DNA of 32,000 bases, taken from the NCBI RefSeq assembly GCF_003945235.1, contig NZ_RSDW01000001.1, positions 1,350,001-1,382,000 of the forward strand, given 5' to 3'. Position numbers and translations under genes: made by a program. Positions within the stretch are counted from its first letter, which is position 1, and every line of letters begins with the position of its first letter. This document shows, in pieces, positions 11,809-31,124 of this stretch. The notes under the pieces are model-generated. The model saw only the letters and a program-made list of their open reading frames with translations. It did no database searches and was not told the origin of the DNA. The stretch comes from Edaphobacter aggregans. Its GTDB lineage: Bacteria > Acidobacteriota > Terriglobia > Terriglobales > Acidobacteriaceae.

Positions 11809-12966
11809 TCAGCCAGCAGTGCGCCCGAAATGGAAAGCCAGAAGCGTAATGTCATCCTCAGGTTCCCGCCCTAAAGCAAGATTCGACCATTGAGATAACG
11901 CTTCAAGAAGCTCATCGACGAATTGCCCCGTTGATAAGTCATGATTGTCCTGGAGAAATTGCTTGAAGCGATCTAGACCAAATTGCTCATCTGAAGGGTC
12001 GGTCATTTCCAGGATTCCGTCGGTGTAAAGGACGCCCCAGTCACCCGCTTTGAAAGGTATCTCCACCGCGGTGTAGGTGGCCTCCGGGAAGAAACCAAGA
12101 AACAAACCGTTCTCGACGAAGTCGCGTGCCTTCCCTGCCGAGTGGTCCATGAAAATGAGTGGTGGGTGTCCCGCACCTGCATAGAGAAGACTTTGCCTTT
12201 CCGTATCTACCACCACATACACCGCGGTGACAAAATGGCCCTGGAATTTTCCACACAACGTACGATTCAGGCCAGCCAACACGCGCGCAGGCTCCAAGGC
12301 ACATTTAATTTGACCGTCCAGTGCAATCTTGAGCATGGATGATATAAGCGCGGCGGGCATGCCGTGGCCAGATACATCCGCTACCAAAATGCCGATCCGC
12401 TTCTCGTCGATCGGGATAAAGTCGTAGAAATCGCCTGCCACCGCCGTCATGGGAAGATAACGGGCTGAAATGTCCAGACCCCTGATTACAGGGATTTCGC
12501 GCGGCAAGATAGACAATTGAATCTGTCGCGCAGTGTCCATTTCACACTGGATGCTTTGCAATTGGCGCGCTAGTTGTTCGCGTATACCGCGGAGCATAAG
12601 GTGTGTACGTACTCTGGCTTGTACGACTGCTGGCGAGAACGGTTTATGAATATAGTCGACCGCCCCGACCTCGAACCCCTTCGTTTCATCGTCAATCTCA
12701 GTTTGACCCGTTAGAAAGATCACGGGAATGTCCCGCGTATGGTCAGCAGACTTAAGACGGGAGCAAACTTCGTACCCGTCCATCTCGGGCATCATGACAT
12801 CCAGAAGAATCAGATCGGGAGCGGGAGTTTGATTTGCAAGTTCTAAAGCCTTCGCGCCACTTGTCGCAATACGAGTCTTGTAGATGTCTTTGAGAATCGA
12901 GTTCACAATCTGGATGTTTGCGGGCTCATCGTCTACGAGTAACAATGTCTTCACTTCGGCGTTCAT
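11809..12966 (-). CDS. Response regulator receiver fused to a PP2C/SpoIIE-type serine phosphatase (RsbU/HsbR-like)
   Basis: The ORF is 385 aa. REC motifs are LLLVDDEPANIQ, LILLDVMMPEMDGYEV, VIFLTGQ and DYIHKPF. PP2C/SpoIIE motifs are VAGDFYDF, LVADVSGHGMPAAL, LLYAGAGHPP and VLYTDGILE. Its first 41 nt overlap the end of the hybrid kinase gene. Confidence 0.9.
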   Translation of the reverse strand: MNAEVKTLLLVDDEPANIQIVNSILKDIYKTRIATSGAKALELANQTPAPDLILLDVMMPEMDGYEVCSRLKSADHTRDIPVIFLTGQTEIDDETKGFEVGAVDYIHKPFSPAVVQARVRTHLMLRGIREQLARQLQSIQCEMDTARQIQLSILPREIPVIRGLDISARYLPMTAVAGDFYDFIPIDEKRIGILVADVSGHGMPAALISSMLKIALDGQIKCALEPARVLAGLNRTLCGKFQGHFVTAVYVVVDTERQSLLYAGAGHPPLIFMDHSAGKARDFVENGLFLGFFPEATYTAVEIPFKAGDWGVLYTDGILEMTDPSDEQFGLDRFKQFLQDNHDLSTGQFVDELLEALSQWSNLALGREPEDDITLLAFHFGRTAG

Positions 12967-15900
12967 CCTTTACCTCCTTCCGATTCAGGCTATGTTCTCT
13001 GGCGATGTCGTCCAGCTTCAACAGGGCTCCGCTAAAATTGAAATCGTTTATATCTGCACCAAGTGCATCCAATAGCGCCTTATCAACTTGGCGGGCAAGA
13101 ACACTTCGTAGTACACGAAACGTCTCCTCTGAAGCGCCATCGCTGGCCTCGAGTTGGCTCCGCAACCGTGTGATTTCACATGAAGCTCCAGCGGGATCGA
13201 AGTTTTTTCTTGATTCGTTTTCGGACGTGGGTGTCGCTAACGTGCACAAAGCCTGCTCTATTGCCTCAATCTGAGCGCGCATGACTGAAATGAAATCCTG
13301 GAGCATCGTTGGAACTTCCGAATCGTTCTCGCGAATTGCTTTTTCTAATTTCTCCGCTGCGAATTGAACTCGCTTGATACCGATGTTCCCGGCGACACCT
13401 TTTACTGTGTGAGCAATGCGCTGAGCCAGTTCGCGATCTCCGCTCTGAAGAGCAGCTTTGACCAGCACGCCTGAGTCGTTGTGCTTCTCCGCAAACTTCA
13501 CAATCAGGCCCCGATACAATTGCCCATTGCCTCCCACTCGCTTGAGGCCATCCTTGATGTCTATACCTTCAATTTCAGGAATATCGGCGATATTTTGTGA
13601 AAAGGCCGTCTCAACCTTCTTACCTGGAGGCTCAGAGCTCAGGACTCGGCGTGGTTTTGCCCAGTGCACCAATGTCGCGAACATCGCGTCCGGATCAATT
13701 GGTTTACTCACATGGTCGTTCATCCCCGCTTGCCTACACAATTCGCGGTCCGCGTCCATCGCGTTGGCGGTCATAGCGATGATGGGCAGCCCACGGAAAC
13801 GTTGGTCAGACCTGATCGCTTTTGTGGCTGCGATTCCATCCATTACCGGCATTTGCATATCCATCAACACAAGATCGTAATCATGCTCGCTCACCATTTG
13901 GACCGCCACCTTGCCATTCTCAGCTATGTCGACGGACATGTGAGCGGCCCCGAGCAGTCCCATCGCGACTTCGCGATTAAGTTCATTGTCTTCCACCAGC
14001 AGCACTCGAACCCCATGTAATCGGTCAAGGTTTAAACTTGAATTGGCCGGAACTTCTGCGATTCTTTCGTCACCAATTCCCAGAGCTTCGACGGATGAAT
14101 CGAAAAGCATGGATGCCGTAACTGGCTTGACGAGAACGCTGGCGAAGGCATTGTCATCGGCTTGCTTTAGAACCTCCTCACGACCGTAAGCTGTAACCAT
14201 CACCAGACGTGGCGGAACGACAACATTCGGCAACGCCCGAATTCGTTTCCCCGTTTCAATGCCATCCATCTCTGGCATCTGCCAATCGACAAAAGCGATC
14301 TCGTACGGCTTGTCTAATTCGGCTGCTTTGCGAACCATTTCAATGCCTTCCTGTCCAGAGGCTGCCTCATCCGCAATGAAGGTCATACTTGTCAGCATGC
14401 TCGACAACACCTCACGTGCCTGTGAATTGTCATCGATAATCAGAACGCGTCGACCACGCAAGTCCGGCCGGGAGAGCTTCCGCAGTGGAGCTGTGCTCTT
14501 GCCGAGGCGAGCCGTGAACCAAAATGTGCTTCCCTTACCCAGTTCGCTGGCCACTCCGACATTACCGCCCATCAACTGTGCCAATCGCTTGGAGATAGCC
14601 AACCCAAGTCCGGTGCCGCCGAACTGTCTCGTCGTAGAAGTGTCCGCTTGCTCGAATGCCTGAAACAGTCGCCCCATTTGTTCCTCGGTAAGGCCGATGC
14701 CAGTGTCGCTAACCGAGAAGCAGACAAGTTTACTGTCCTCATCTTCCTCCTGGATCCGAACTTTGACGACGATCTCGCCCTGCTCTGTAAACTTAACGGC
14801 GTTGTTGCAGAAGTTGATCAGGATTTGGCCCAACCGCAGTGGGTCGCCCTTGAGTTGGGTTGAGACCGAGGGCTCAATGTCGAAGATCAGTTCCAAACCT
14901 TTGGACGAGGCCTTCTCGGAGAGAAGATTGCTGACGTTCTCCAACACTTTATCGAGATTGAAGTCAATGTTTTCTACAGACAGCTTGCCAGCTTCGATCT
15001 TCGAGAAATCCAGAATATCGTTGATGATGCCGAGCAGATGCTGGCCGGACTGTTGAATCTTCCTGACATAGTCTCTTTGACGATGGTCAAGTTCAGTCCT
15101 CAATGTCAAATGCGACATGCCAATGATCGCATTCATCGGTGTGCGAATTTCATGGCTCATATTGGCCAGGAAATCGGACTTCGCCTTCGTGCCCGCTTCC
15201 GCTACCTCCTTGGCCTCAAGGATCGCCGCCTCTGCCCATTTACGTTCTGTGATGTCCTTAACATTGGCTACGATAATCTGCTGGTTCATATAGTCTGCAC
15301 AGTACAAAGTGACCTCAGCATCGAATACGCGCCCATCTTTAGCACGATGTTTTGACTCTCGAGTCAGAACAGGTTTATCCCGAAGAAGCTCTATGACTTC
15401 TTTCAGCTTGTCGGGGCCAAACTCAGTGATTTCGCTGATGGGAGTAGCCAGCAATTCCTCTCTCGTGTAGCCAAGGCTCCGACTAGCCTCCTCATTGACA
15501 TATTCCAACCCTCCATCTGTTGTACGAATCCAGAAAACCGCGTCGGCTGCGTGGTCCACCGCATATTGTGTGAAGCGAAGGCGCTGCTCGACCCGTTGAC
15601 GCTCTGTAATGTCTTCGTGCAACGAGATAACGTATTGCGGCTTACCCTGGGCATCCCGGATAAGTTTGAATCTTCCACTCGCAACGATGATGCTGCCATC
15701 AGGCCGGATGAAGCGTTGTATATACTCATCCTCATCGCGCTTCCCTTCAATAAGATCGGCATACCTCCTTGCTCCCTCGGCGCGGTCATCTGGATGAATG
15801 ATCTTGTCCCATTTCTTCGTGTCGTTCAATTCTTCCGCGCTGTAGCCCAACTGCTCAAGTTGAGTGCGGTTGCTTAAATGCTCCCTCGTATTGATGGCAT

Positions 15901-17677
15901 AGATGCCGATTCCAATCTGCGCATTCTCGAAAATGGAACGGAACCGCTTCTCGCTTTCCTGTATAGCTTGTTCACTTCGTATTCGCTCTGTTATGTCTTG
16001 GATCGCCACAACTGCCCCCACAACCTGATCTCCCTTCCGAATTGGCGTGGTGCTGTATTCTACGCAGAGGCAACTTCCGTCCTTCTTCCAGAGGACTTCG
16101 TCCGAAGATACGTGGCGTTGCCCGTCGTGGGCGGTCTTGGACATCCAACAATCTTCTGCAGGGTATGGCGATCCATCGGGATAGGCGTAATGAACGGCTG
16201 CATGCATCGGCTGGCCAATGAGTTCCTCCGGCTCATAGCCCAACATTCGAGCGCCTGCAGGATTCACAAATGCAACCGTCCCATCTGCGCTGAGTCCCCA
16301 GATGCCATCCGCCACTGACGACAAGATTAGGCGAGACCTTTCCTCCACCGCTGCCAGAGTCTCTGCCTGCTGCTGAGTGTGTTCGAGCAGCTTTCTGGTC
16401 TTGATGTTGGCGGACAACATCTCCGAGTTCATCGCCAAAACAGGCATGAGTGCTTCAAGCAGAACCTGTTGGCGGTCCGATAGTGCTAAAGTCGGTGCTA
16501 GTTCGAGGACTCCCATCACAACGTCCTGGTGTACTACCGGCATTAGGAGGAGAGTGCGAGGCTTGAGCGTTCCGCTCCCGCTCAAAATACTGAGCTTATC
16601 TTCCTCGTTTGCGGAAACCACTAGTGTCCGCCGTTCCACAGCCGCCTGGCCGATGAGTCCCTCTCCAAAAATAAATTCCCGGGCCTCATCTGGACCATCA
16701 AGAGCAAATCCTCCGACACGAGCCAACCGAGCGTGACTTTCATCGGCAACATAAAGAGCGCCGTAGAGCAGCGGGATGGACTCAGAGAGGCGCGAAAATA
16801 AACATCTCCCGAATTCTGCAAAATTCACGGAAGATTGCAACTCCTCCGCGATATCCGAAACCTCAGCCTTCACCCAATGCTGGATTGCGCGTTCGCGAGC
16901 ACTATCCTGTAGAGTGCGCAATGCTCGGCTGATCGCGCCTATTTCGTTCGTCTGGTTGAGGTAGGGGATCATTTGATCCAGCTGTCCGTCGGCAAGAGCC
17001 TGGACGCTACCGCGCACGGCCAATAATTCGCCGATAACTTCGGTCTGGACGATATAAAGGGTGAAGGTTAGAGTCGCCGCAAGGCCGAGGCAGACGACAA
17101 GCCATGTGATCAGAATGGCGCGGTGAGTTTTTCTCGTGAGATCGTCAGATTGCCGGTCTACAGTCGTTCGCAATTCGTCCACCGAGTCGATGGCAGCCTG
17201 CCTCGCCTGCTGCAATTCCATACCCGCGTCCCCGCGTATCAAACTCAGGGCCTTTTCGGTATTGTTCGCCAATGCTGAGGCACGAATAGGACGTGCATCT
17301 GACATCGCCTTATCGAAAAGGGCCGCGGTGGCCTTGATTGCCTTGGCGTGATCTGGACTCTGAGCCATTGCTTCCGCCATACGCGTTTGAAAATCAGCGT
17401 AGATCTTGTCTAGCTCTCCATCGATTTTTACCCTCCTATCGGGGTCAGGCTCGGTAACCTCCTCATAGAGGAAAAGACCAACTCGATTCGCGTGTGCTCG
17501 AGCCACCGAGAGGCTCTGCAACGTCTTGACGTCATGGTCGATCATATTGCTATAGTGGGCATCGATCTGCCTACTTGTGATCGACGAATATAGTGTCGCT
17601 AGGACCACCATCAGCGCCAGTGGCAGCACTGTGAGAAGCAACTTGGCTCGAATTCTCAGATTTGCTAATAGAGCCAT
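12926..17677 (-). CDS. Hybrid sensor histidine kinase: TM, periplasmic helical (4HB_MCP-like) sensor, TM, HAMP, GAF, three PAS, HisKA, HATPase_c, two REC and Hpt
   Basis: The ORF is 1583 aa with two TM helices flanking a helical region of about 150 aa. The H-box is FLANMSHEIRTPMNAIIGM and the G-boxes are SDTGIGL and GGTGLGLAISKRL. The two receivers are VLIIDDN...FVDWQMPEMDG...VKPV and VLLVEDN...LMDMQMPVMDG...VSKPI. The C-terminal Hpt motif is AHTVKGVAGNIG. PAS signatures include repeated DITERxxxE boundaries. Confidence 0.9.
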   Translation of the reverse strand: MALLANLRIRAKLLLTVLPLALMVVLATLYSSITSRQIDAHYSNMIDHDVKTLQSLSVARAHANRVGLFLYEEVTEPDPDRRVKIDGELDKIYADFQTRMAEAMAQSPDHAKAIKATAALFDKAMSDARPIRASALANNTEKALSLIRGDAGMELQQARQAAIDSVDELRTTVDRQSDDLTRKTHRAILITWLVVCLGLAATLTFTLYIVQTEVIGELLAVRGSVQALADGQLDQMIPYLNQTNEIGAISRALRTLQDSARERAIQHWVKAEVSDIAEELQSSVNFAEFGRCLFSRLSESIPLLYGALYVADESHARLARVGGFALDGPDEAREFIFGEGLIGQAAVERRTLVVSANEEDKLSILSGSGTLKPRTLLLMPVVHQDVVMGVLELAPTLALSDRQQVLLEALMPVLAMNSEMLSANIKTRKLLEHTQQQAETLAAVEERSRLILSSVADGIWGLSADGTVAFVNPAGARMLGYEPEELIGQPMHAAVHYAYPDGSPYPAEDCWMSKTAHDGQRHVSSDEVLWKKDGSCLCVEYSTTPIRKGDQVVGAVVAIQDITERIRSEQAIQESEKRFRSIFENAQIGIGIYAINTREHLSNRTQLEQLGYSAEELNDTKKWDKIIHPDDRAEGARRYADLIEGKRDEDEYIQRFIRPDGSIIVASGRFKLIRDAQGKPQYVISLHEDITERQRVEQRLRFTQYAVDHAADAVFWIRTTDGGLEYVNEEASRSLGYTREELLATPISEITEFGPDKLKEVIELLRDKPVLTRESKHRAKDGRVFDAEVTLYCADYMNQQIIVANVKDITERKWAEAAILEAKEVAEAGTKAKSDFLANMSHEIRTPMNAIIGMSHLTLRTELDHRQRDYVRKIQQSGQHLLGIINDILDFSKIEAGKLSVENIDFNLDKVLENVSNLLSEKASSKGLELIFDIEPSVSTQLKGDPLRLGQILINFCNNAVKFTEQGEIVVKVRIQEEDEDSKLVCFSVSDTGIGLTEEQMGRLFQAFEQADTSTTRQFGGTGLGLAISKRLAQLMGGNVGVASELGKGSTFWFTARLGKSTAPLRKLSRPDLRGRRVLIIDDNSQAREVLSSMLTSMTFIADEAASGQEGIEMVRKAAELDKPYEIAFVDWQMPEMDGIETGKRIRALPNVVVPPRLVMVTAYGREEVLKQADDNAFASVLVKPVTASMLFDSSVEALGIGDERIAEVPANSSLNLDRLHGVRVLLVEDNELNREVAMGLLGAAHMSVDIAENGKVAVQMVSEHDYDLVLMDMQMPVMDGIAATKAIRSDQRFRGLPIIAMTANAMDADRELCRQAGMNDHVSKPIDPDAMFATLVHWAKPRRVLSSEPPGKKVETAFSQNIADIPEIEGIDIKDGLKRVGGNGQLYRGLIVKFAEKHNDSGVLVKAALQSGDRELAQRIAHTVKGVAGNIGIKRVQFAAEKLEKAIRENDSEVPTMLQDFISVMRAQIEAIEQALCTLATPTSENESRKNFDPAGASCEITRLRSQLEASDGASEETFRVLRSVLARQVDKALLDALGADINDFNFSGALLKLDDIAREHSLNRKEVKDERRSEDIVTRRR

Positions 17678-17761: not shown

Positions 17762-18436
17762 CTACTCGTTGAATCCACGCTCCAACCCTATCGCTTTTTG
17801 CGATCTGTGAATTTCAAAAATACTTTCAGGACTTGCGGCAGAATTTGCCGAGAAATATTGGTTGAGCCCGGCAGCAACCTCTTTCAGTCCCCGATCGAGA
17901 TTGGTATCCAGCGCCGCCACGACCGCGGAGATTTCCTTGCCTTGTATGGGTTCAGATTGGGAATAGAAATGCTTCCAAACAATCTTGCCCGATTTCCGGT
18001 CATAGAGTTCAAACTCCATAGACACGAGTCCCTCGATATTCGCGCCGTCGACTTCTTCAAAGTTGTAGAGCCTGCCTCGAATCACGAATTGTCCGCCCGA
18101 ATTGCTCCCAAGGCCGCTAACAGACTGATAATCGCCTGAAGCACTCAGCACGCGTATTAATTTGCTCTTGATCAATTCGACCGGAGGCTCCACCCAACGG
18201 CTATGCTGGTACGCGCCAATCTGGTTGGTGCCGATGCGATACAAGATCGGCGTGTCCCGAAATACTTCCGCTCCTCCGATGCCTCCAACTAATAAAGATA
18301 CGGGGTATGCGCTTGTCGTAAGTGTGGGTGTTCGAGGGCTCTGTACTGTGTAATAGTGGATGGGCTTGCCCCCGCCACACCCGCTTAGACTCAAGGCGAG
18401 CGGTGATATCAAAACGAGTCGGGCCATTCGATGCAT
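17762..18436 (-). CDS. ABC-transport auxiliary lipoprotein (PqiC/YmbA, DUF330/ABC_trans_aux-like)
   Basis: I place the start at MHRMARLVLISPLALSLSGCGG, which gives a lipoprotein signal with an LSGC lipobox. The size and position, directly downstream of an MCE gene, fit the auxiliary lipoprotein family. The 18493 TTG start in the track adds 19 aa before the signal peptide and has an SD that sits too close. The functional call rests on context and overall pattern. Confidence 0.65.
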   Translation of the reverse strand: MHRMARLVLISPLALSLSGCGGGKPIHYYTVQSPRTPTLTTSAYPVSLLVGGIGGAEVFRDTPILYRIGTNQIGAYQHSRWVEPPVELIKSKLIRVLSASGDYQSVSGLGSNSGGQFVIRGRLYNFEEVDGANIEGLVSMEFELYDRKSGKIVWKHFYSQSEPIQGKEISAVVAALDTNLDRGLKEVAAGLNQYFSANSAASPESIFEIHRSQKAIGLERGFNE

Positions 18437-18574
18437 AGGAAACCTCTTCCGTAGGGCACTAGATATTGCTTTAAAGACCTGCTCTTGTATCAACTCCTCC
18501 CGTCTACCCTCTTTGCTCCGCGGAGAACTAGCCGTTAGAAATAGTCATTGGTCATCCCCGTGGAGATCCTTGCC

Positions 18575-19537
18575 TTACTTCTCGCCGGGTTTTCGATCTT
18601 TCCCATTGTTTCCACGAATAAGCACTGCAGGGTTGGTCTTCAACGAATCCGTCAGTATTTTCATGTTTTCGCTTGTAATGCGGATATTCTCGAGGATTTG
18701 GTCGATGTTGTCCGTGTTGTTGTCCGTCGTATTTTTTAGCTGCTCGATAAGAGCTTGTGCGTTGAGCATGGTCTCTTTTAGCTCGACGACTATTGTCCGA
18801 ATGTCCTGGCGATTCTCAACCACGAGAGCGTCAACGTGCGACAAGGTCTCGTTTGCCTGATTCATGGTTGACTTAAGGTCATCTAGCAAGGGTACAAGCT
18901 TGGCACTCGCGACCTGTACGTTCGCTAAGCTCCCTGATATCTTCGGACGGTTTTCAGCGAGTATGGCATTCAAGTTTCCTAGACTGTTGCCTATGTTCTC
19001 GCGGTTCTTGTCGTTCAGCAGATCGTTGACGCGGGCCAGTGTCACCTGCAGTTCCGTGAGGCGTTGGTTCAGGGTTTGCATAACCTGATTGACAACGGGG
19101 GTGAGGCCTCCAATCATATCGCCTAGATCACCAATTCCCACTGTCTCGACGGACTTCAGTTCGCTGCCGGGTGCTGCAAGTTGGCCTCCTTTTGTTCCGG
19201 TTCCGATCTCCACATAGTTATCGGAAAGCGCCCCCAGGCTGGAAATTTTCGCGATACTATCGGTCTTTACCGGGATGTCACGCTGTACACTAAAGTCGAT
19301 CTCAATGCGGGTCGAGTCTTTGGGATCCACCCGTACAGCCTCGACCTTGCCGGCTTTCATACCTCCGTAGCGAACTGCGGCACCAGGCAAAAGACCGCCG
19401 GCCGACTTAAAATAGGTATGATGTGCGACCCCGCCCGAAGCAAAAGTGCCGGACACAGCCAAGATTGTCCCAATTAGCAGTGCCGCCGCAACTATTACAA
19501 AAAAACCCACTGCGGCCTGCTCGCGTTTGCTGTTCAT
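18575..19537 (-). CDS. MlaD/MCE-domain protein with a long C-terminal helical extension
   Basis: The ORF is 320 aa with an N-terminal TM anchor (AAVGFFVIVAAALLIGTILAV). The MCE core is YFKSAGGLLPGAAVRYGGMKAGKVEAVRVDP...IEIDFSVQRDIPVKTDSIAKISSLGALSDNYVEI. About 170 aa of Leu/Asn/Gln-rich helical sequence follows. Confidence 0.85.
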   Translation of the reverse strand: MNSKREQAAVGFFVIVAAALLIGTILAVSGTFASGGVAHHTYFKSAGGLLPGAAVRYGGMKAGKVEAVRVDPKDSTRIEIDFSVQRDIPVKTDSIAKISSLGALSDNYVEIGTGTKGGQLAAPGSELKSVETVGIGDLGDMIGGLTPVVNQVMQTLNQRLTELQVTLARVNDLLNDKNRENIGNSLGNLNAILAENRPKISGSLANVQVASAKLVPLLDDLKSTMNQANETLSHVDALVVENRQDIRTIVVELKETMLNAQALIEQLKNTTDNNTDNIDQILENIRITSENMKILTDSLKTNPAVLIRGNNGKDRKPGEK

Positions 19538-19567: not shown

Positions 19568-20386
19568 TCAATCCTTCGCGGTCTTGCGGTCCCCCGTGAG
19601 CATCTGCAGATAGTCGAGTTCATCGAGGACCTCAGGCTCCGGCACTCGATCCAAAAACTGGCGCACCCTCGGATGAGTACTTGCTTGGAACTCCTCTTTG
19701 GTTCCCAGCGCTATGATGTGGCCACGATCGACATAGACCATACGGTCTGCGATTAGAAATGCACTGGCCAATTCGTGGGTTACCACGACCATTGTTATGG
19801 CATAGGCTTTCTTTAGATTCATGATTAGTTCATCGAGTCCCGCAGCAATGATGGGATCCAGCCCTGCGGAGGGTTCATCGAAAAACAGTATCTCCGGATC
19901 CATGGATAATGCGCGCGCGACAGCGGCACGCTTCTTCATTCCGCCGCTTAATTCCGAAGGCATGTAGTCTTCGAAATTGCTGAGCCCAACTTGTCCGAGC
20001 TTGATCCTCACCATAATCTCGATGGTGGAGTCTTCAAGATTGGTGTGTTCGCGCAATGGCAACGCAACGTTCTCGCCAACGGTTAACGATCCGAATAACG
20101 CCGAACCCTGGAACGACATACCCATTTTCTTGCGAATCACATCCATCTCTCGCTCGGAAATATTTGCGATATTCACACCTTGAATCCACACTTCACCTGA
20201 ACTCGGCTTTTCCAAACCGACTAATGTTCGTAATAAGGTACTTTTCCCTGAGCCTGACCCACCAAGAATCACCATAGTTTCCCCCCGACGGACGTCAAAC
20301 GTAATCCCATGGAGGATTTCGCGTTCACCGTAAGACACACTAAGGTTAACCACTGAAATGGCCGCATCGCTAGCATCATTAGTCAT
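19568..20386 (-). CDS. ABC transporter ATP-binding protein, MlaF-like
   Basis: The ORF is 272 aa. It has Walker A GGSGSGKST, signature LSGGMKKRAAVARAL, Walker B ILFFDEPSAGLD and H-loop VVTHEL. It lies between the MlaE-like and MlaD-like genes. Confidence 0.9.
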   Translation of the reverse strand: MTNDASDAAISVVNLSVSYGEREILHGITFDVRRGETMVILGGSGSGKSTLLRTLVGLEKPSSGEVWIQGVNIANISEREMDVIRKKMGMSFQGSALFGSLTVGENVALPLREHTNLEDSTIEIMVRIKLGQVGLSNFEDYMPSELSGGMKKRAAVARALSMDPEILFFDEPSAGLDPIIAAGLDELIMNLKKAYAITMVVVTHELASAFLIADRMVYVDRGHIIALGTKEEFQASTHPRVRQFLDRVPEPEVLDELDYLQMLTGDRKTAKD

Positions 20387-20496: not shown

Positions 20497-21321
20497 TTAG
20501 GTGGGATTAATAAAATAAAACAGGCTTGTAAACACAAGGTCGACAACAATCACAAGAGCTATCGAGGTTACGACTGCCGCCGTTGTCGAGCGTCCGACCT
20601 CCTCAGCTCCGGCTCCCGTTGAAAAACCCTCTTTGCACCCAACGGCCGTGATGACCAATGCGAACAGCGCGCTCTTGATGAGACCTGTGTAGATATCGCG
20701 CGCGAGGATAGCCTCTCGCGTTGCTTGGAAATAGGAGGCGATAGTAAAGTCGGCGCCAGTGACGCCGAAGACACATCCCCCTACAATGCCCATGAAGTCA
20801 GCCCAGACTGTAAGACACGGCATCATCACCAGCATTGCCATAAATTTAGGTGCGACAAGGAAGGCCACAGGATCGAAAGCCATCGTTCGGAGAGCATCTA
20901 CCTCCTCAGTCACCTTTTTAGTGCCGATCTCCGCGGCGAAAGCCGATCCCGAACGACCGATGACGACGATGGCTGTAAGTAACGGTCCAAGTTCTCGTAG
21001 AATAGAAATAGCCACGGTGCCCGCCACCAGTTGCATCGCACCTAACCGACGCAGTTCATAGGCACTCTGCAGTGCCATGATTAAACCAACGAAGAAGGTA
21101 ATCAGCGAGATAATAGGTATAGCTTCAACGCCGACGGCCATAGCCTGATGGATTGCTCGATTGGGGCGTAGACGCTGACCCTCGAAAGGGCCCACAAAGG
21201 TAACATGGGCGGACTGGCCCGCGAGGGTAGCTAGATCCCCTATGTAAGCAAAGCCGCTCATCGTCCAGAGGCCGACAATTCCTGGTACAGCTGCGAACTT
21301 TTCCGTCACTTTCAACGACAT
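20497..21321 (-). CDS. ABC transporter permease, MlaE/YrbE family
   Basis: The ORF is 274 aa and polytopic. Family-typical stretches are LRELGPLLTAIVVIGRSGSAFAAEIGTKKVTEEVDALRTMAFDPVAFLVAPKF and KSALFALVITAVGCKEGF. Confidence 0.9.
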   Translation of the reverse strand: MSLKVTEKFAAVPGIVGLWTMSGFAYIGDLATLAGQSAHVTFVGPFEGQRLRPNRAIHQAMAVGVEAIPIISLITFFVGLIMALQSAYELRRLGAMQLVAGTVAISILRELGPLLTAIVVIGRSGSAFAAEIGTKKVTEEVDALRTMAFDPVAFLVAPKFMAMLVMMPCLTVWADFMGIVGGCVFGVTGADFTIASYFQATREAILARDIYTGLIKSALFALVITAVGCKEGFSTGAGAEEVGRSTTAAVVTSIALVIVVDLVFTSLFYFINPT

Positions 21322-21399: not shown

Positions 21400-21744
21400 T
21401 CAAGCAATAAGTGCTTGCTCCTCGGTTTCGCATATTTCAAAAACACCAGTTAGATGCGTAAGTTGTAGTACTTGAAGGACAGCACCACTTACCCCAAACA
21501 AGACAAACCGCTTATTGGAATTACGTGCTTCTTTGAGGACCTCCAGAAGTGAGGCGATCCCGGAGCTATCGATATACTTTACTGCGCTCAGGTTTATAGC
21601 TACACTTTTCGTTCCATTCAATGATTCCAAAAGTGTCTTGCGAAGGATTGGCGAACTTCCGAGGTCTATCTGACCTACTACGTCAACGATCGTGACCCCT
21701 CTTTCAATCCGTGTCGAAGAACCCATCTGTCTGTCCATATCCAT
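21400..21744 (-). CDS. STAS-domain protein (anti-sigma-factor antagonist RsbV/SpoIIAA-like, and positionally MlaB-like)
   Basis: The ORF is 114 aa with a conserved phosphorylation-loop motif YIDSSGIASL. I verified DSSG at nt 21570-21559. It lies between an RsbW-like kinase gene and mlaE. The start could be Met1, Met3 or Met7. Confidence 0.85.
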   Translation of the reverse strand: MDMDRQMGSSTRIERGVTIVDVVGQIDLGSSPILRKTLLESLNGTKSVAINLSAVKYIDSSGIASLLEVLKEARNSNKRFVLFGVSGAVLQVLQLTHLTGVFEICETEEQALIA

Positions 21745-21832: not shown

Positions 21833-22279
21833 TCAATGCGGCACCGATCCGTCATTATCGATTCTCCCCTTATCAGATGACAGGTGCTTAACTAGCCTTA
21901 CTCGATTGCCCCCTGGAACTCGCTCGTAATACACCTCATCCATGATCGCCTTCATTAGATGGGTTCCGCGTCCAGTCAGCGAAACGTCATCCAACGGCTG
22001 CCCGCATATCCTGGCCAGATCTGGTGGCTCGCCCCAATCAAGAAGCGTAAAAACTATCCGATTAGAATCAGTCTGACAGTTCAATTCGATCTCCTGGTCA
22101 TAACGGTTTCTGTAGGCATGTCGGATAATATTGGCTAAGCCCTCATCAACGGCCAAAGTGACTCCTCGGCACAACTCCTCCGACAATCCGCAAATCGCAC
22201 TTACCTCGCTCACCGCGGCGCGGGCAATCGATAAGAAGCGAGGATCGCTTGGCACAATAAGTTTCAAATGAAAGTCCAT
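21833..22279 (-). CDS. RsbW/SpoIIAB-like anti-sigma-type serine protein kinase (HATPase_c_2)
   Basis: The ORF is 148 aa. It has an N-box-like EGLANIIRHAY, a DxG motif (LLDWGEP) and a G2-like TGRGTHLM. It sits directly upstream of the STAS gene. Confidence 0.8.
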   Translation of the reverse strand: MDFHLKLIVPSDPRFLSIARAAVSEVSAICGLSEELCRGVTLAVDEGLANIIRHAYRNRYDQEIELNCQTDSNRIVFTLLDWGEPPDLARICGQPLDDVSLTGRGTHLMKAIMDEVYYERVPGGNRVRLVKHLSSDKGRIDNDGSVPH

Positions 22280-22888
22280 TTAGCTTGGCTAGGCGCCTCC
22301 ATTTGGGACGATGCACCAAGAAGTCTTTTTAGCTGTAGTTCGCTACGTCCAATTTACTAGGCCGATAGAATGTAAAAAATCCAGCTTCAGACGCATCGCA
22401 TTGAGAAATGCAAGCTTGAGGGTATTCCATAGCGTCGGGCCCGCCACAGCGCTCTACCATTAGAGTGTTGTGGTTAGGGAAGGCACGAAAGACTTATACT
22501 TGCTTATTTCGTCCCCACCCTCTATTCCGTTTGAAACGCAACGACTCAATATAACTCTTGTTCGTTGATAGCGCTAGCTCAGAAAAGTATTAAAGGGCTT
22601 ATGGGCACTTCCGTCTCTCTGTTTTTTTTGAATACAGCAGTAGTCCCAGAGAGATCGAGTTTCTGTTCTCAGTAGGCCCAAAGATAATTTGAAAGGGAGC
22701 CTCTAGTTTGATCTCCCCCATCCTGCGTTATCACCGGACCGGGGCTGGCGGCAAGGATCATCTCTTTTATTTTGTTTAGGCTACCAAAGGGCCAGGCCGG
22801 GGGTCGAAGGCCCAATGCGTGCTTGTTCTGTCGTGACAATCGAGAAAGCGGGCAACCTACGACAGCCTCGCAAGACTCAAAGCCACCC

Positions 22889-23728
22889 TTAATACCTTTC
22901 CGGGATGAAGCGATATGGATAGTCTGGCTCTACGTACCCTTTCGATTTCTGTCTGAGAGGAAGACTCACCTTTTCGAGTTCGATCTCTTCGTAAGGGATT
23001 AGGCTAAGGAAATGTGAGATGCAGTTCAATCGAGCGCGCCGTTTGTCGTCTCCGTTAACGACGTACCATGGCGACCTCTCGGTGTCTGTAGCCGCGAACA
23101 TCGCATCTCGCGCTCGCGAATAGTCGTACCAACGACGGTGCGATTCCAGATCCATGCCGCTAAGCTTCCAGATTTTCCTAGGATCGTTGATGCGTTCGCA
23201 GAATCTGCGGGTCTGTTCCTCCTTGCTCACTTCGAACCAATATTTGATCAGTATTACACCGGCTTCGATGATATCTCTCTCCCAGGCCGGACATACTTTG
23301 AGGAATCTCTCGTATTCTTCGTCCGTGCAAAACCCCATCACCCTCTCAACGCCGAGACGGTTATACCAACTTCGGTCAAAAATAACGATCTCGCCTCCTG
23401 CTGGGAGATGCTCGAAATATCGCTGAAAATAAATTTGTGTGCGCTCTCGCTCGGACGGAGCGGGAAGAGCAACTACCCGAAATACGCGGGGGCTCACTCG
23501 TTCAGTGATCCGTTTGATGACGCCGCCTTTGCCAGCCGCGTCTCTGCCTTCAAAGATAACTGCAACTTTCGCTCCCGTATGCTTCGCCCACAATTGCAGT
23601 TTGACTAGTTCTGCATGAAGCTTGGCGATTTGCTCTTCATATTCTTTGCGCTGGAGCTTTGGCTTGTCAGTTGATTTTGCCTGTAAGTTTTGAATCTTGC
23701 CGGGCTGACTCTTTCGCTTTTTGTCCAT
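22889..23728 (-). CDS. ppk2: Polyphosphate kinase 2 (single-domain PPK2)
   Basis: The ORF is 279 aa. It has a PPK2 Walker A (VIFEGRDAAGKGG), the stretch YFQRYFEHLPAGGEIVIFDRSWYNR, and WKLSGMDLESHRRWYDY. Its ATG lies 3 nt after the stop of the upstream Na/Pi cotransporter gene. Confidence 0.9.
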   Translation of the reverse strand: MDKKRKSQPGKIQNLQAKSTDKPKLQRKEYEEQIAKLHAELVKLQLWAKHTGAKVAVIFEGRDAAGKGGVIKRITERVSPRVFRVVALPAPSERERTQIYFQRYFEHLPAGGEIVIFDRSWYNRLGVERVMGFCTDEEYERFLKVCPAWERDIIEAGVILIKYWFEVSKEEQTRRFCERINDPRKIWKLSGMDLESHRRWYDYSRARDAMFAATDTERSPWYVVNGDDKRRARLNCISHFLSLIPYEEIELEKVSLPLRQKSKGYVEPDYPYRFIPERY

Positions 23729-23731
23729 AAC

Positions 23732-25417
23732 TCACCCATCGATTTGTTGTGTCACAACGGTCTCGTAATCTCTGACGATTCGTCTAGCGAAGTAAGCAAT
23801 TTGCTTGCATTGCTCGATCATGTCCGTGGCTATACGGAAAGCCTGGACATCTTTCTTATCTGCCAATTGAAGCTTCTCCATGAGACTCTTGCGGGTCGCG
23901 GCCGCCAGATCCTCAATCTCTCTTTTCGCTGCGATCACTTCTGCCATGTCGCTCGCGTTTGGGTGGTCTATTGTTTGGATTGCTTGTTCGAGATTTCGCA
24001 TAACGGCGCTAACAAATCGAGACGTGGTCTCGTCTCGCAACCGCGCCAAATCGATACTCTCCACAATTCGTTGTTGGCCCAGAGAAACCAGTTTGGTTGT
24101 TATGATATCGCTAACGCTCTCCAGATTATTGGCTGTTTGCGCGAGGCCAACCATTTGCTGGCCGTCTTCTTGTGTATGCTCTCCCTGCGACAGTCGGCCA
24201 ATATAGACGAGAATCGCAGCTTCCAACCGATCCACTTCCTCATGCTCGCTGAGCAGGGTCTGGAGATCCTCCAGCCGCCCGTCAACCACAGCCGCCGGGG
24301 CGCGCCGAACCAATGCCAGGACCAGTTCGCCTAGCCGTGTCAATTCCAAAGAAACTCTCTGAAGTCCAACCGAAGGTATCTCTAACGCTGATTCATCAAG
24401 ATAAAGCGGCTCACCGACGCTCTTAGTTTTTTGGCGGCGAGCCGGGACAATGCGCTGCGCAAGTTTGGCAAGCGGTCCGACAAACCAGATCAAAATAAAT
24501 GTACTCGAAACGCTGAAAACGGTATGGGCGTTTGCTATTTGGCGCGGTGTTTCGGCCGCCAGTCGCGCGGTACCTTCCAAGTCCGGATGGCTAGGTGAGA
24601 TATGCCTGACTAGGTCACCTAACTGAGGGATGAAGAAGACCCAGAACAGCACACCCAGGACGTTGAACAGAAGATGAACAACTCCGACTTGAACCGACTC
24701 GGCGGATTTACCAATACCGGCCAGCATTGCCGTCAAGCAAGTCCCGATGTTCGCTCCGAGCACAACGGCTATACCGGCCTCCAAGGGAATAAGACCTTGA
24801 CTTGCTAACGCAATCACGACAGCCAACGTGGCTGCAGAGCTTTGAACAACAGCCGTAAAAATGGCTCCCGCAAGAATTCCTAATAGCGGATTCTTCATCT
24901 CCTGCATGGCCTTAATAAATGGCTCAAACGTCCGCAAGGGACGGGTGGCATCGCCCATAAACTCAATTCCAAGAAAGAGTAGTCCAAGGCCGAGGACGAT
25001 GCCACCGAGCTGCCGAAGAAGTTGGCGCGTTCCAAATGCGTGGAACAGGAATCCAATCGCCAGCATGAATGGTACGAGCGCCTTCACATTGAAGGCCATG
25101 ATTTGTGCAGTAAACGTAGACCCGACATTGGCGCCCATGATCATTGGGACGGCCTGACCCAAAGTCATCAAGCCCGCAGAGACAAAGCCAACCATCAGTA
25201 CAGTGGTAATCGTAGAGGAATTTAGCACGGCTGTGACGAATGCACCCGATATCAGCCCCAAAAATCGATTGGCAGTGAGTTTGGCCAGGGCCGATTCCAA
25301 GCTCGCTCCAGCGACGGCCTTGAGACCGTTAGTCATCAATTCCAGACCGAAGAGAAAGAGGGCGAGACCACCAGCGAGCAGCCCCAGCATTTCGAGTAGA
25401 TTTATATCGTTTGGCAT
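23732..25417 (-). CDS. Na/Pi cotransporter family protein with C-terminal PhoU-like domains (YjbB/NptA-like)
   Basis: The ORF is 561 aa. The N-terminal polytopic half contains the repeated Na_Pi_cotrans signature (VLNSSTITTVLMVGFV... and AVVQSSAATLAVVIAL...). The C-terminal soluble half, about 220 aa, is helical and PhoU-like. Confidence 0.85.
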   Translation of the reverse strand: MPNDINLLEMLGLLAGGLALFLFGLELMTNGLKAVAGASLESALAKLTANRFLGLISGAFVTAVLNSSTITTVLMVGFVSAGLMTLGQAVPMIMGANVGSTFTAQIMAFNVKALVPFMLAIGFLFHAFGTRQLLRQLGGIVLGLGLLFLGIEFMGDATRPLRTFEPFIKAMQEMKNPLLGILAGAIFTAVVQSSAATLAVVIALASQGLIPLEAGIAVVLGANIGTCLTAMLAGIGKSAESVQVGVVHLLFNVLGVLFWVFFIPQLGDLVRHISPSHPDLEGTARLAAETPRQIANAHTVFSVSSTFILIWFVGPLAKLAQRIVPARRQKTKSVGEPLYLDESALEIPSVGLQRVSLELTRLGELVLALVRRAPAAVVDGRLEDLQTLLSEHEEVDRLEAAILVYIGRLSQGEHTQEDGQQMVGLAQTANNLESVSDIITTKLVSLGQQRIVESIDLARLRDETTSRFVSAVMRNLEQAIQTIDHPNASDMAEVIAAKREIEDLAAATRKSLMEKLQLADKKDVQAFRIATDMIEQCKQIAYFARRIVRDYETVVTQQIDG

Positions 25418-25550
25418 CCCGCACCTTCTGATCGCAGTTTTTTGGATGCAAGCAAAATATCGTCGTGAACTCGTGTTTCTCTATTTCCAGCTACAGCCAG
25501 AGACCTCAGCCATCGCCGATAATCAGGCTGTCCTTGGAACAGCGAAACGT

Positions 25551-28304
25551 TTACGGTGCCGATTCAGTGCCCAACGGCGTTTTACGTGCGCGACGCAACA
25601 TGCGAATAATAATCTTTTCTACCTCCACGAGAAGGAAGAATATGAAGCCGCCGAGGATGAGCTTTGGCCAAATCCGGAGCGGTATCGGCTCAGTGTCGAA
25701 TAGTGCCTGGAGTGGCGGCGCATAGGTGAAAAGCAATTGCAGCACCACGACAGCACCGATACCCAACGGCAAGTATTTGTTGTCGAGGTGCGCCTTGAGC
25801 GACAACGATGAGCCCACCTTGAAGCGGCTGTTGAGAAGGTAAAAGACCTGACCAATAACTAACGTGTTCACTGCGACAGCCCGCGCCAGGCCGTCGGAGG
25901 CGTCATACGATTTCATCCGGAAGAATGCCCATAGCGTAAGTCCGAGCAGCGCTAATCCGACGAAAATAACGCGCCAGACTCCGAAGCCATCCAGTATCGG
26001 ACGCTCGACTGCACGTGGCGCTCGTTGCATAACATCGGGTTCGTGCGGTTCGAAAGATATCACCAGCCCGAGCGCGACGGAGGTCACCATATTCACCCAG
26101 AGGATTTGTGGCGCGGTGATCGGCGCGGTGAAGCCCACGATAATGGCTACTAGGATGACGAGTGCCTGAGCGACGTTTGTCGGCAACAAGAAGAGTATGG
26201 CTTTCTCGATGTTGTTGAAGACTGTACGCCCTTCTTTGACGGCCGCTGTGATCGAGGCAAAGTTGTCGTCGACGAGCACCATCGAGGCGGCCTCCTTTGT
26301 AACCTCGGTGCCCTTGATCCCCATAGCGACCCCGATGTCAGCTTTCTTTAGTGACGGCGCGTCATTGACTCCGTCACCTGTCATCGCCACTATCTGCTTA
26401 TTCGCCTGAATCGCCTTAACCAGACGCAGCTTGTGTTCGGGGCTCGCTCGTGCGAAGACGTCGACATCACGAACCTTCTCCTGCAGCATGGCCGTATCCA
26501 TCTCTTCAATCTCGGCCCCGGCGATTGCGGTCTTGCCATCGCCGATACCCAGCATCTTGGCTATCGCTGCAGCAGTAATCTTGTGATCTCCAGTTATCAT
26601 CGTTACTCGAATGCCGCCGGCGTGACATTCCTTGACGGCTTCGATCGCCTCTTTGCGCGGTGGGTCAAGCAACCCGATCAAACCAACGAGGACGAGATTC
26701 TTTGGGAGATCCGCTGGCCCTAAGCTTCCTGCGCTGATGCTCGGTTCTTCGAGCCAAGCCAGCCCCAACACGCGCTCGCCCTGCGATGCGAGCTTGTCCG
26801 AAGCTTTAAGGAAATAGTCGAGATCGAGCGGCACAAGCTCCCCACTTGTGACCGCCTGATGCTTGCAATTTTCAAGGATGACTTCCGGCGCGCCTTTGAC
26901 GAGAATCATCCGCTTGCCGTCGGCGTCCTTATGCAGCGTGGCCATGAACTTGTGTTCCGATTCGAATGGGATCGCATCGATCCTGGGATATGTATCCCGC
27001 GCGGCCTTCCGATCGAGCCCGAGCTTATTTCCGAATGGGTATAGGGCTCCTTCGGTTGGGTCGCCTTCAACTTTCCATAGGCCTTCTTCCTGACGGATCT
27101 CCGCGTCGTTGCACAGCATGGAGACCTGTCCCATAAGTTTGAGCACGGGATCTTTGCCTGCGGGTTGACCGTCTTTCAGTACCTGACCTTCGGGTGCGTA
27201 ACCATCGCCTGTCACAACATAAGCCGATTCGCCCGTAACCGCTGACACCACCATCATCTCCATTAGCGTTAGCGTGCCGGTCTTGTCGGAGCAGATGCGT
27301 GAGACCGAACCCAGAGTTTCCACCGCTGGAAGGCGCCGGATGATTGCGTTGCGCTGAGCCATGCGCTGTACGCCTATCGCGAGCGTGACAGTGATGAGTG
27401 CAGGCAATCCCTCAGGAATCACCGACACTGCGATGCTGACAACCGCCTGGAAGATGTTCACGAAGGGCATGCTCCTAACCCATCTGCCGTAGGCAAACAC
27501 GAGGACGGAGACGATCCCAATGATCGCGGTGATGGAATAACCGAAGTTCTTGATCTGGCGCAGTAGAGGTGTCTCGAGCGTGCTGACCGAGGCCATCATC
27601 TGATTGATGCGACCTAGTTCGGTTTCCGGGCCAGTAGCGACCACGATCCCGGTACCGCGTCCGGACACGACCAGCGTTCCTGAGAACGCCATGCCCTCTC
27701 GATCCCCGATCGTAGCCTTGTTGGACACCGCGTTTGTGGTCTTGTCGACGGGCACCGACTCGCCCGTAAGCGCAGCTTCCTCTGTCCGCAGGTTTTTGAC
27801 CTCGACGAGACGAAGGTCCGCCGGGACCTTGTCACCCGATTCGAGAAGCACGACATCGCCCGGCACCAGTTCCTCGGACAGGATCAAACGAATCTCCCCG
27901 CCGCGCAGCGTCCTAGCCTCCGCGGACAGCATATTGCGGATTGAATCGAGCGCCTTCTCGGCCTTGCCTTCCTGAATGAAGCCGAGCAGCGCATTGAGAA
28001 CGACAACGCTCAGAATGATCGCCGAGTCGAGCCACAAGCCGACCATCATCTTGACGAACCCGGCTCCGAGCAAGACATAAACCAGAATATTGTTGAACTG
28101 CTGCAAGAACTTTATAAACGCCGACTGCTTCTTTCCCTCCGGCAGGCGGTTGGGGCCGTATTTCGCCAGGCGCTGTGAGGCCTCGCCTGCGTCGAGGCCT
28201 TTCGCGGGGTCCGTTTGGAGCCGCTTGGCTACTTCGTCTACGGCTATGGCGTGCCAGACCGTCGTTTCACTTGCTGGGGCAGTCGCTGCTGTATTCATCT
28301 GCAC
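25551..28304 (-). CDS. Cation-transporting P-type ATPase, P2 (Ca2+/Mg2+/Na+-type) subfamily
   Basis: The ORF is 917 aa. It has a Cation_ATPase_N motif (VDEVAKRLQTDPAKGLDAGEASQRLAKYGPNRL), TGES, M4 PEGLP, the phosphorylation site CSDKTGTLT, and the hinge motifs MITGDH and TGDGVNDAPSLKKADIGVAMG. Ion specificity cannot be read from the sequence. Confidence 0.9.
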   Translation of the reverse strand: MQMNTAATAPASETTVWHAIAVDEVAKRLQTDPAKGLDAGEASQRLAKYGPNRLPEGKKQSAFIKFLQQFNNILVYVLLGAGFVKMMVGLWLDSAIILSVVVLNALLGFIQEGKAEKALDSIRNMLSAEARTLRGGEIRLILSEELVPGDVVLLESGDKVPADLRLVEVKNLRTEEAALTGESVPVDKTTNAVSNKATIGDREGMAFSGTLVVSGRGTGIVVATGPETELGRINQMMASVSTLETPLLRQIKNFGYSITAIIGIVSVLVFAYGRWVRSMPFVNIFQAVVSIAVSVIPEGLPALITVTLAIGVQRMAQRNAIIRRLPAVETLGSVSRICSDKTGTLTLMEMMVVSAVTGESAYVVTGDGYAPEGQVLKDGQPAGKDPVLKLMGQVSMLCNDAEIRQEEGLWKVEGDPTEGALYPFGNKLGLDRKAARDTYPRIDAIPFESEHKFMATLHKDADGKRMILVKGAPEVILENCKHQAVTSGELVPLDLDYFLKASDKLASQGERVLGLAWLEEPSISAGSLGPADLPKNLVLVGLIGLLDPPRKEAIEAVKECHAGGIRVTMITGDHKITAAAIAKMLGIGDGKTAIAGAEIEEMDTAMLQEKVRDVDVFARASPEHKLRLVKAIQANKQIVAMTGDGVNDAPSLKKADIGVAMGIKGTEVTKEAASMVLVDDNFASITAAVKEGRTVFNNIEKAILFLLPTNVAQALVILVAIIVGFTAPITAPQILWVNMVTSVALGLVISFEPHEPDVMQRAPRAVERPILDGFGVWRVIFVGLALLGLTLWAFFRMKSYDASDGLARAVAVNTLVIGQVFYLLNSRFKVGSSLSLKAHLDNKYLPLGIGAVVVLQLLFTYAPPLQALFDTEPIPLRIWPKLILGGFIFFLLVEVEKIIIRMLRRARKTPLGTESAP

Positions 28305-31035: not shown

Positions 31036-31124
31036 TGGTGCCCGGAGGGGGACTTGAACCCCCACGACCGGTTAAGGTCTGCGGATTTTAAGTCCGCTGT
31101 GTCTGCCGATTTCACCATCCGGGC
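31036..31124 (-). tRNA. tRNA-Leu, anticodon UAA, class II with long variable arm and encoded CCA
   Basis: I folded the cloverleaf by hand on the minus strand. The acceptor is GCCCGGA/UCCGGGC and the D stem is GUG/CAC. The anticodon stem GCGGA/UCCGC carries loop CUUAAAA, giving anticodon UAA. The variable arm is AGACCUUAACCGGUCGU and the T arm is GGGGG-UUCAAGU-CCCCC, followed by the discriminator A and CCA. Total length is 89 nt. Confidence 0.92.

Follow-up and report, generated by a model that had tools for sequence, protein, structure and literature searches.

Small STAS switch proteins are toggled by phosphorylation, normally for the control of gene expression. We have analysed a 32-kb stretch of the Edaphobacter aggregans genome, here called the window, in which the gene of one such protein, of 114 amino acids (aa), lies between that of an RsbW-like serine kinase and those of an envelope lipid transporter of the ATP-binding cassette (ABC) type; the cluster is on the minus strand and all coordinates given for it are positions in the window. 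By every criterion of sequence and of modelled fold the protein is classed as a kinase substrate of the RsbV/SpoIIAA type, and not as an MlaB orthologue. Gene content, motifs and fold are described below, together with a linkage of kinase, STAS protein, PP2C phosphatase and mla genes that extends across the Terriglobia. What is new is the hard-wiring, at the level of gene arrangement, of an MCE lipid transporter to a phospho-switch module, with an RsbV-type STAS protein standing where one of the MlaB type might be; the kinds of component are known. In the literature searched, Mla/MCE transporters are nowhere linked with partner switching or with a kinase or phosphatase.

Escherichia coli MlaFEDB (PMC7367683, PMC5016091) resembles the present locus in being an MCE-type lipid ABC transporter with a small single-domain STAS protein in its operon, in the Ser/Thr at the N-terminus of helix alpha2 of that protein (T52 in MlaB, S60 here), and in a C-terminal extension of MlaF which in both cases holds a D-Y...L motif. 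MlaB has 97 aa and the motif DTGG, its gene comes last in the operon and neither a kinase nor a phosphatase is known for it, whereas the STAS protein under study is a full-length RsbV-type one with the motif DSSG, encoded by the first gene, just 5' of mlaE, flanked by a kinase and linked to a PP2C. Also, MlaC and MlaA are missing here, and the cluster has a long MlaD together with a PqiC-like lipoprotein. Brucella abortus MpcEFDA, a Mla-Pqi chimeric system (PMC12436622), shares with the window MlaE, MlaF, a long MlaD of ~320–330 aa and a PqiC-like lipoprotein; its MpcD (331 aa) matches the MlaD protein of the window (320 aa) in length and layout, and it too has a STAS module directly N-terminal to, or 5' of, MlaE. 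However, in MpcEFDA and its plasmid homologues this module is fused to MlaE and is MlaB/STAS_2-like (LDTGG), while here it is a separate protein of the RsbV type, and at the Azospirillum and Ruegeria plasmid loci no kinase or phosphatase is annotated, in contrast to the dedicated kinase and PP2C found here.

As for the regulatory genes, the RsbV-RsbW-sigmaB and SpoIIAA-SpoIIAB-sigmaF switches likewise combine a HATPase_c_2 kinase, a DSSG-bearing STAS protein and a PP2C, and the STAS fold is shared at a template modelling (TM) score of 0.8–0.9. The closest input is that of Bacillus cereus, where a hybrid histidine kinase (RsbK) feeds a REC-PP2C (RsbY), as here (PMC9912610, PMC4574943). Unlike in these switches, no conserved sigma gene is found in or near the operon, and a lipid transporter stands in its position. 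A STAS protein that is itself the output, acting on a non-canonical target according to its phosphorylation state as set by a kinase and phosphatase of its own, is described for Pseudomonas HptB-HsbR-HsbA (PMC5085249, PMC6482189), which has in common with the window a His-Asp phosphorelay input, and for Vibrio fischeri SypE-SypA (PMC10120452, PMC4517449). The outputs are in these cases FlgM, a diguanylate cyclase, RpoS or biofilm polysaccharide, and not an ABC transporter; moreover, kinase and phosphatase are there fused in one protein (HsbR, SypE), whereas here they are separate genes.

The STAS protein and its gene row

From the kinase to the PP2C phosphatase, the genes of the cluster form an unbroken row on one strand of the window:

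22279..21833, minus strand: RsbW-like serine kinase with a HATPase_c_2 domain, 148 aa (Pfam and NCBIfam)
21744..21400, minus strand: STAS protein of RsbV/SpoIIAA type, 114 aa (Pfam, TIGR00377, fold)
21321..20497, minus strand: MlaE-family ABC permease, 274 aa (Pfam MlaE, TIGR00056)
20386..19568, minus strand: MlaF-like ABC ATPase, 272 aa (NCBIfam MlaF as best match; PF00005 above cutoff)
19537..18575, minus strand: long MCE/MlaD protein, 320 aa (Pfam MlaD; PF02470 above cutoff)
18493..17762, minus strand: PqiC-like outer-membrane lipoprotein, ABC_trans_aux, here called aux (PF03886)
17677..12926, minus strand: hybrid sensor histidine kinase, 1583 aa (Pfam domains)
12966..11809, minus strand: REC-PP2C serine phosphatase of SpoIIE type, 385 aa (Pfam Response_reg and SpoIIE)

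The gaps between the genes from kinase to histidine kinase are, in order, 88, 78, 110, 30, 81 and 84 nucleotides (nt), and the open reading frames (ORFs) of the hybrid histidine kinase and REC-PP2C overlap by 41 nt (12926–12966), which suggests that the two are translationally coupled. Every ORF of 50 aa or more in the six frames was compared with two hidden Markov models (HMMs), one of RsbV type and a small one of MlaB and fused STAS domains, and a single ORF, 21744..21400, was matched by both; since no second STAS or mlaB gene was found by this search in the window, the cluster is without a separate mlaB. The ORF reads ...AVKYIDSSGIASLLEVL..., and its residues D59-S60-S61-G62 are encoded by GAT AGC TCC GGG (21570..21559), the Ser60 codon being 21567–21565. 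The original prediction had described, from the DNA alone, a 114-aa STAS protein with DSSG at 21570-21559, encoded directly downstream of an RsbW-like kinase, as the only STAS protein next to mlaE/mlaF in a cluster lacking mlaB, and all of this is borne out. It had also seen a dedicated kinase/phosphatase pair coexisting with the phosphorylatable serine; the kinase is adjacent to the STAS gene, the phosphatase, REC-PP2C, is not and lies next to the hybrid histidine kinase.

The STAS protein scores 71.5 bits against the Pfam STAS family (PF01740, cutoff 22.6) and 72.8 bits against TIGR00377, the anti-sigma factor antagonists, whose cutoff of 53.45 it passes; it is, however, not SpoIIAA itself, because the SpoIIAA equivalog TIGR02886 gives 41.5 bits, under the cutoff of 114.75. 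Among solved structures, the sequence E-values are 1.7e-14 for TM1442, ~2e-6 for SpoIIAA and 2e-5 for RsbV. The AlphaFold2 model (predicted local distance difference test, pLDDT, of 86.4) has the complete SpoIIAA topology, with strands at residues 8–14, 17–26, 47–58, 79–83 and 103–105 and helices at 31–42, 60–75, 87–95 and 108–113, and it places Ser60 at the first turn, that is at the N-terminus, of helix alpha2. In a Foldseek search with this model the top ranks are taken by SpoIIAA, TM1442 and RsbV, at query-normalised TM scores of 0.81–0.89. The tetrad D59-S60-S61-G62 aligns with the DSSG of SpoIIAA; none of the 68 sequences in a family alignment departs from S60, and all of 37 Mla-linked orthologues have DSSGIA unchanged, Ser60 being the predicted phospho-acceptor. 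With E up to 1e-3 as the limit, the wider RsbV-like family is very large, at 10,282 representative clusters, and the Mla-linked orthogroup is a narrow branch of it.

The kinase scores 96 bits against Pfam HATPase_c_2, and RsbW is the NCBIfam model that it matches best, though the 58 bits fall short of the equivalog cutoff; its N-box (A.DE..N..RHAY) and G1 box (D.Ge) are invariant in 39 orthologues and its G2 box (grgth) is at least 90% conserved. Both this cognate kinase, 88 nt upstream of the STAS gene, and the REC-PP2C of the gene row are conserved across loci; the kinase is predicted to phosphorylate Ser60, and the REC-PP2C is the predicted phosphatase of the phosphorylated STAS protein. 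At 14 genome loci or more, an orthologue of the REC-PP2C (65–93% identity) is found near the cluster, its position and orientation varying. The hybrid histidine kinase, which carries 4HB_MCP, HAMP, GAF, three PAS, HisKA, HATPase_c, two REC and Hpt domains (Pfam), is the presumed input to the REC-PP2C; its orthologues are found less than 10 kb from the cluster in many Terriglobales loci, and their position and orientation also vary.

That the STAS protein passes TIGR00377, that TM1442, SpoIIAA and RsbV are its nearest solved relatives by sequence and by fold, and that RsbW is the best family match of the kinase, all agree with a conventional partner switch. In such an arrangement, which we regard as unlikely, the kinase would be an anti-sigma factor or the inhibitor of an unlinked regulator, the STAS protein its antagonist, and the mla genes either passengers or the main regulon; it is further in its favour that MlaEFD occurs without a STAS protein in many diderm bacteria (PMC10665443). 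Against it stands the lack of a conserved sigma gene, both in the window and in the flanking ORFs of 34 non-redundant loci. Indeed, there is no sigma factor gene in the 32 kb of the window; among the 174 ORFs flanking the 34 loci we find 2 sigma genes of the extracytoplasmic function (ECF) group, neither a conserved sigma factor gene nor, among the families listed, a group-3 sigma family being present.

The transporter is, as judged from the sequences of its genes, an Mpc-type (Mla/Pqi-like) envelope lipid ABC transporter composed of MlaE, MlaF, a long MlaD and a PqiC-like lipoprotein. MlaE (274 aa) scores 252 bits in Pfam and 236 bits against TIGR00056, passing the cutoff of 212; it has no fused STAS domain, the STAS protein being encoded by the separate gene 78 nt upstream. 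Among NCBIfam models the ATPase comes closest to MlaF, with 228 bits where the equivalog cutoff is 441, and the best solved relatives are MlaF chains. The MlaD protein matches Pfam MlaD at residues 40–112, and the remainder is long and helical, with weak coiled-coil-like matches. The lipoprotein scores 46 bits against PF03886 and has an N-terminal lipobox-like LSLSGC, its true start probably lying downstream of the listed TTG.

Conservation of the linkage across Terriglobia

In a collection holding one genome per species, loci were found by the STAS pattern alone, and their genes were then compared with the window proteins by tblastn. The pattern scan gave 42 loci, all from Acidobacteriota except for two weak cyanobacterial matches. 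The kinase lies directly upstream in each of the 38 Terriglobia loci whose STAS protein is at least 60% identical (38/38), and in all of these but one (L032) the order kinase-STAS-mlaE-mlaF-mlaD-aux is colinear on one strand, as far as the contigs reach. A second scan, of metagenomes, started from a STAS clade further removed, and its 80 loci were picked by STAS similarity only: mlaE is directly downstream in 73/73 loci with enough downstream sequence, and the kinase directly upstream in 68/70 with enough upstream sequence. These loci include a deep clade, from Bryobacteraceae, Candidatus Sulfopaludibacter and Acidoferrales, with ~50% STAS identity and 35–47% kinase identity and with an operon of seven genes, namely PP2C, kinase, STAS, mlaE, mlaF, mlaD and aux (e.g. 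L062 8783–13594). The gene order is thus kept over three orders of Terriglobia, down to 47% STAS and 35% kinase identity, and a Mla link confined to close relatives of the window is ruled out, as it reaches Bryobacteraceae, Sulfopaludibacter and Acidoferrales. Given that the loci were retrieved only by STAS similarity and share this arrangement, the latter is far beyond chance.

Two loci might be taken for exceptions. In L032 (1204–1784), on the contig of a Terriglobia metagenome-assembled genome (MAG), all that is left of mlaE after the kinase and STAS genes is an N-terminal remnant of 56 aa, and unrelated genes come next; either the locus has decayed or the assembly is chimeric, and with the remnant retained it is not a full exception. 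At L036 the contig ends with mlaE starting, and this locus is likewise dismissed as an exception.

Promoter and terminator scans of the region 11.5–23 kb returned no more matches than were found in shuffled sequence, and no intergenic terminator; they are therefore uninformative on operon structure, which we infer only from spacing and from the conservation of gene order. The median intergenic gaps in orthologous clusters are 20–74 nt, and in two loci, L062 and L050, STAS stop and mlaE start overlap. The 30–110 nt gaps of the window, which are not overlaps, and simple scans devoid of operon-level promoter or terminator evidence would also suit an adjacency that is a historical accident, with no functional coupling; however, we find this very hard to credit, as the order is kept across the three Terriglobia orders and in paralogous duplicate clusters within one genome.

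Such duplicates were seen as two paralogous kinase-STAS-mlaEFD-aux clusters per genome, L021 and L023 on one 4.8-Mb contig (CAVPBA010000002.1) and L022 and L044 in one MAG, and in each pair an FHA-GAF-PP2C accompanies one cluster, and an opposite-strand hybrid histidine kinase its paralogue. The entire kinase-STAS-mla module has been duplicated and retained as a unit.

The PP2C genes beside the cluster recur in three architectures. The first, that of the window, is a REC-PP2C with a hybrid histidine kinase; the second is an FHA-GAF-PP2C with a second STAS protein and a second HATPase_c_2 kinase upstream (L021, L022, L024, L028 and L112); the third is a stand-alone PP2C of ~260 aa, either just 5' of the kinase (Bryobacterales/Acidoferrales) or just 3' of aux. 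The PP2C input varies while the kinase-STAS-mla core is constant, as expected if the transporter is the output. For L022 (6673–13878) the second architecture comprises an FHA-GAF-PP2C of 577 aa, a second STAS protein of 170 aa and a second kinase of 173 aa, followed by kinase-STAS-mlaEFD-aux. In these Terriglobales clusters with an extra tier (L022, L021, L024, L028, L112) the order resembles rsbU/S/T plus rsbW/V of the Bacillus subtilis sigB operon, and the mla genes stand at the position of sigB.

A literal version of such a switch may be considered, in which the RsbW-like kinase binds and inhibits MlaF or MlaE and the unphosphorylated STAS protein sequesters the kinase and is thereby an anti-inhibitor. 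The likeness of the gene order to rsbV-rsbW-sigB, the sigma gene's place being taken by mla, the upstream PP2C-STAS-kinase tier added in some paralogous clusters, like rsbU/S/T, and the kinase directly upstream in nearly all loci are in its favour. We know of no HATPase_c_2 protein that binds an ABC ATPase, which counts against it, as do the loci without an adjacent kinase and the STAS-MlaE fusions described next, and we judge inhibition of the transporter by the kinase itself to be quite improbable.

In a neighbour-joining tree the Mla-linked STAS proteins are one clade. A sister clade (P0123, P0124 and P0128), ~50% identical to the window STAS protein and retaining YIDSSG, abuts or overlaps mlaE-mlaF-mlaD-aux, and no kinase or PP2C was found in the 600–1100 nt upstream or in a 7.9-kb contig. 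Sister-clade loci are L050 (820–4523), L048, L132 (1201–3831) and the P0124 contig, with the STAS gene translationally coupled to mlaE. Because this clade keeps the STAS gene on mlaEFD-aux with no kinase adjacent, it is the STAS protein itself that is tied to the transporter. In the same direction points the fusion of the two proteins in transporters of the same type. The closest plasmid-borne MlaE homologues (Azospirillum and Ruegeria, 40–45% identity) have the same operon and an N-terminal STAS_2 domain, which reads LDT(G/V)G and resembles VDTGG of MlaB; Brucella MpcE has its STAS domain fused to the N-terminus of MlaE (PMC12436622), and STAS-MlaE fusions were taken already in 2007 as a sign of functional linkage (PMC1810536). 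The separate STAS gene of Terriglobia stands exactly where the fused STAS domain of an Mpc-type MlaE would be. The sister clade, holding STAS on mlaE with no adjacent kinase, and the fusions, which point to a direct relation of STAS and transporter, argue against a kinase that inhibits the transporter; together with the overlap of STAS stop and mlaE start in some lineages, they argue also against a conventional switch with the mla genes as passengers or regulon.

On the other hand, the nearest outgroup kinase-STAS pairs lie in non-mla contexts, which is in favour of the conventional switch and makes of the pair a portable regulatory unit. The outgroup STAS proteins concerned (L040, L049, L047 and L041) have 48–54% identity and are not beside mla genes, and they rule out that the whole wider RsbV-like neighbourhood is Mla-linked. 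In two of them (L040 1703–5979 and L049 317–3978) kinase and STAS genes lie beside an opposite-strand gene for a ~370-aa protein with no Pfam match and then a small histidine kinase; next comes, in L040, an NtrC-type sigma-54 activator and, in L049, a gene cut by the contig end, whose N-terminus alone is receiver-like. This context may represent a different output for the same kind of switch.

A proposed phospho-switch on lipid transport

We hold, by analogy with E. coli and with moderate confidence, that an RsbV-type STAS protein has here been re-purposed as an MlaB-like subunit and that phosphorylation of Ser60 gates the transporter. An RsbV/SpoIIAA-type STAS protein would have come into an Mpc-type transporter together with its own serine kinase and PP2C. 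In its unphosphorylated form it would bind the helical subdomain of MlaF, like E. coli MlaB, and stabilise or activate the MlaFE ATPase complex; the adjacent RsbW-like kinase would phosphorylate Ser60, placed in the STAS-MlaF interface, upon which the STAS protein would be released and the transporter shut down, and the PP2C would reverse this phosphorylation. In the lineage of the window, the response-regulator PP2C would be fed by a phosphorelay from the membrane hybrid histidine kinase with its periplasmic four-helix-bundle sensor, and an envelope signal would thus turn lipid transport on or off after translation. What we infer is that the kinase phosphorylates Ser60 and that STAS binds MlaF, and likewise the direction in which the switch works and the kind of signal that it receives. 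A further possibility, to which we lean somewhat less, is that the transporter ATPase replaces the sigma factor in a true partner switch, with the STAS protein alternating between kinase and MlaF, and phosphorelay or other PP2C inputs switching transport post-translationally.

The analogy is drawn from studies of the E. coli complex, in which MlaB binds the helical subdomain of MlaF via its helical face and has Thr52 at the centre of the interface; the T52E substitution weakens binding to MlaF, T52A abolishes function, and MlaF leaves the complex when MlaB is missing (PMC7367683). Thr52 is the residue equivalent to Ser60. The authors of the MlaFB work raised the phosphoregulation of MlaB and left the question open, no kinase for it being known in E. 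coli (PMC7367683). A second element of likeness is MlaF's C-terminal extension, which in the window spans approximately residues 250–272 (nt 19571–19639) and contains the motif DYLQML; reading ...EELDYLQMLTGD, it is almost invariant across Terriglobia and its D-Y...L aligns with D-Y261...L265 of E. coli MlaF, where the 'handshake' helix with Y261 and L265 docks in the groove between MlaF and MlaB (PMC7367683).

Several points weigh against the re-purposing of the protein as an MlaB-like subunit. By sequence and fold it is a classical anti-sigma antagonist and not MlaB: it reaches 27.4 bits against the MlaB model NF033618 (mlaB_1) and misses the cutoff of 90, the MlaB chains in the PDB are matched only at E 0.04–0.1, and in the Foldseek search MlaB appears first at rank 32, with TM scores of 0.56–0.67. 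Also, the model has a fifth strand and a last helix, both missing from MlaB, which is a minimal STAS protein devoid of these elements (PMC7367683). These bit and TM scores rule out that the protein is MlaB, and, as it is not MlaB-like, an MlaB role would be one of functional replacement and not of orthology. Most diderm bacteria run MlaEFD without any STAS protein (PMC10665443), so that the transporter need not require one, and MlaF of Veillonella, which has no MlaB, also has a short C-terminal extension (PMC10665443), because of which the argument from the extension is a suggestive one. The contact of STAS with MlaF is a predicted one, for which the conserved DY...L motif of MlaF speaks only indirectly; gene linkage fits equally well a STAS protein that is a transporter subunit and regulators co-transcribed with their regulon, and cannot distinguish between the two. 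Finally, a sigma factor may be encoded elsewhere in the genome, beyond the window and the locus flanks.

The original prediction had considered the STAS protein to sit where an MlaB would be expected, and had suggested a dual-role or re-purposed STAS. Its position adjacent to mlaE stands, but the expectation was overstated, as among diderm bacteria MlaB has a sparse distribution, MlaEFD being the ancestral core (PMC10665443). Re-purposing finds support in the linkage, the PP2Cs, the lack of a conserved sigma gene, the sister clade and the fusions, whereas a true dual role, acting also on an anti-sigma/sigma pair, finds none. Sequence scores and fold place the protein with RsbV/SpoIIAA and not with MlaB, and no conserved sigma gene is nearby.

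Surrounding genes and biological meaning

Upstream of the kinase gene there is a gap of ~600 nt with no long ORFs (22280–22888), which is mostly unconserved. It contains on the minus strand, at 22335–22354 and ~56–75 nt before the kinase start codon, the 20-nt block AATTGGACGTAGCGAACTAC, which is almost identical in three close relatives (L003, L004 and L075) and may be a promoter or operator candidate. An Rfam scan gave nothing in this gap, its sole match in the window being a tRNA gene (31039–31124, minus strand). Further upstream on the strand of the cluster follow genes of a PPK2 polyphosphate kinase (22889–23728), a Na/Pi cotransporter with a PhoU domain (23732–25417) and a P-type cation ATPase (25551–28304), which look like a phosphate/cation handling group (22889–28304). 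The PPK2 gene is not conserved beside the cluster at other loci and was seen only in L019, far upstream. On the other side of the cluster are a BlaI-like repressor (7626–8009) and a BlaR1/M56 sensor-protease with a C-terminal DUF3738 (5509–7626), flanked by two outer-membrane proteins of ~1060–1080 aa (2382–5573 and 8320–11574), both with CarboxypepD_reg and OMP_b-brl_4 domains; a minus-strand ORF of 721 aa (214–2379) matches no Pfam family with E up to 1e-3.

As for the meaning of these results, the annotation 'anti-sigma B factor antagonist', which is assigned automatically, may mislead for the Mla-linked STAS family. If the transporter ATPase does take the part of the sigma factor in a true partner switch, this would be the first case from nature of an MCE/ABC lipid transporter with a dedicated Ser-phosphorylation switch, and a natural system that answers whether STAS subunits of the MlaB type are phosphoregulated. 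Terriglobia have a natural operon encoding STAS protein, kinase and phosphatase along with the transporter, and because they are encoded together the hypothesis is testable with four or five recombinant proteins, for which the natural variants, i.e. the sister clade with no adjacent kinase and the fused STAS-MlaE proteins, are useful controls. If confirmed, ABC transporters would join the outputs of partner-switching modules, an RsbV-type STAS protein would be seen to be able to replace an MlaB-type one, and the trafficking of envelope lipids would be a regulated process in a group of soil bacteria that is among the most abundant.

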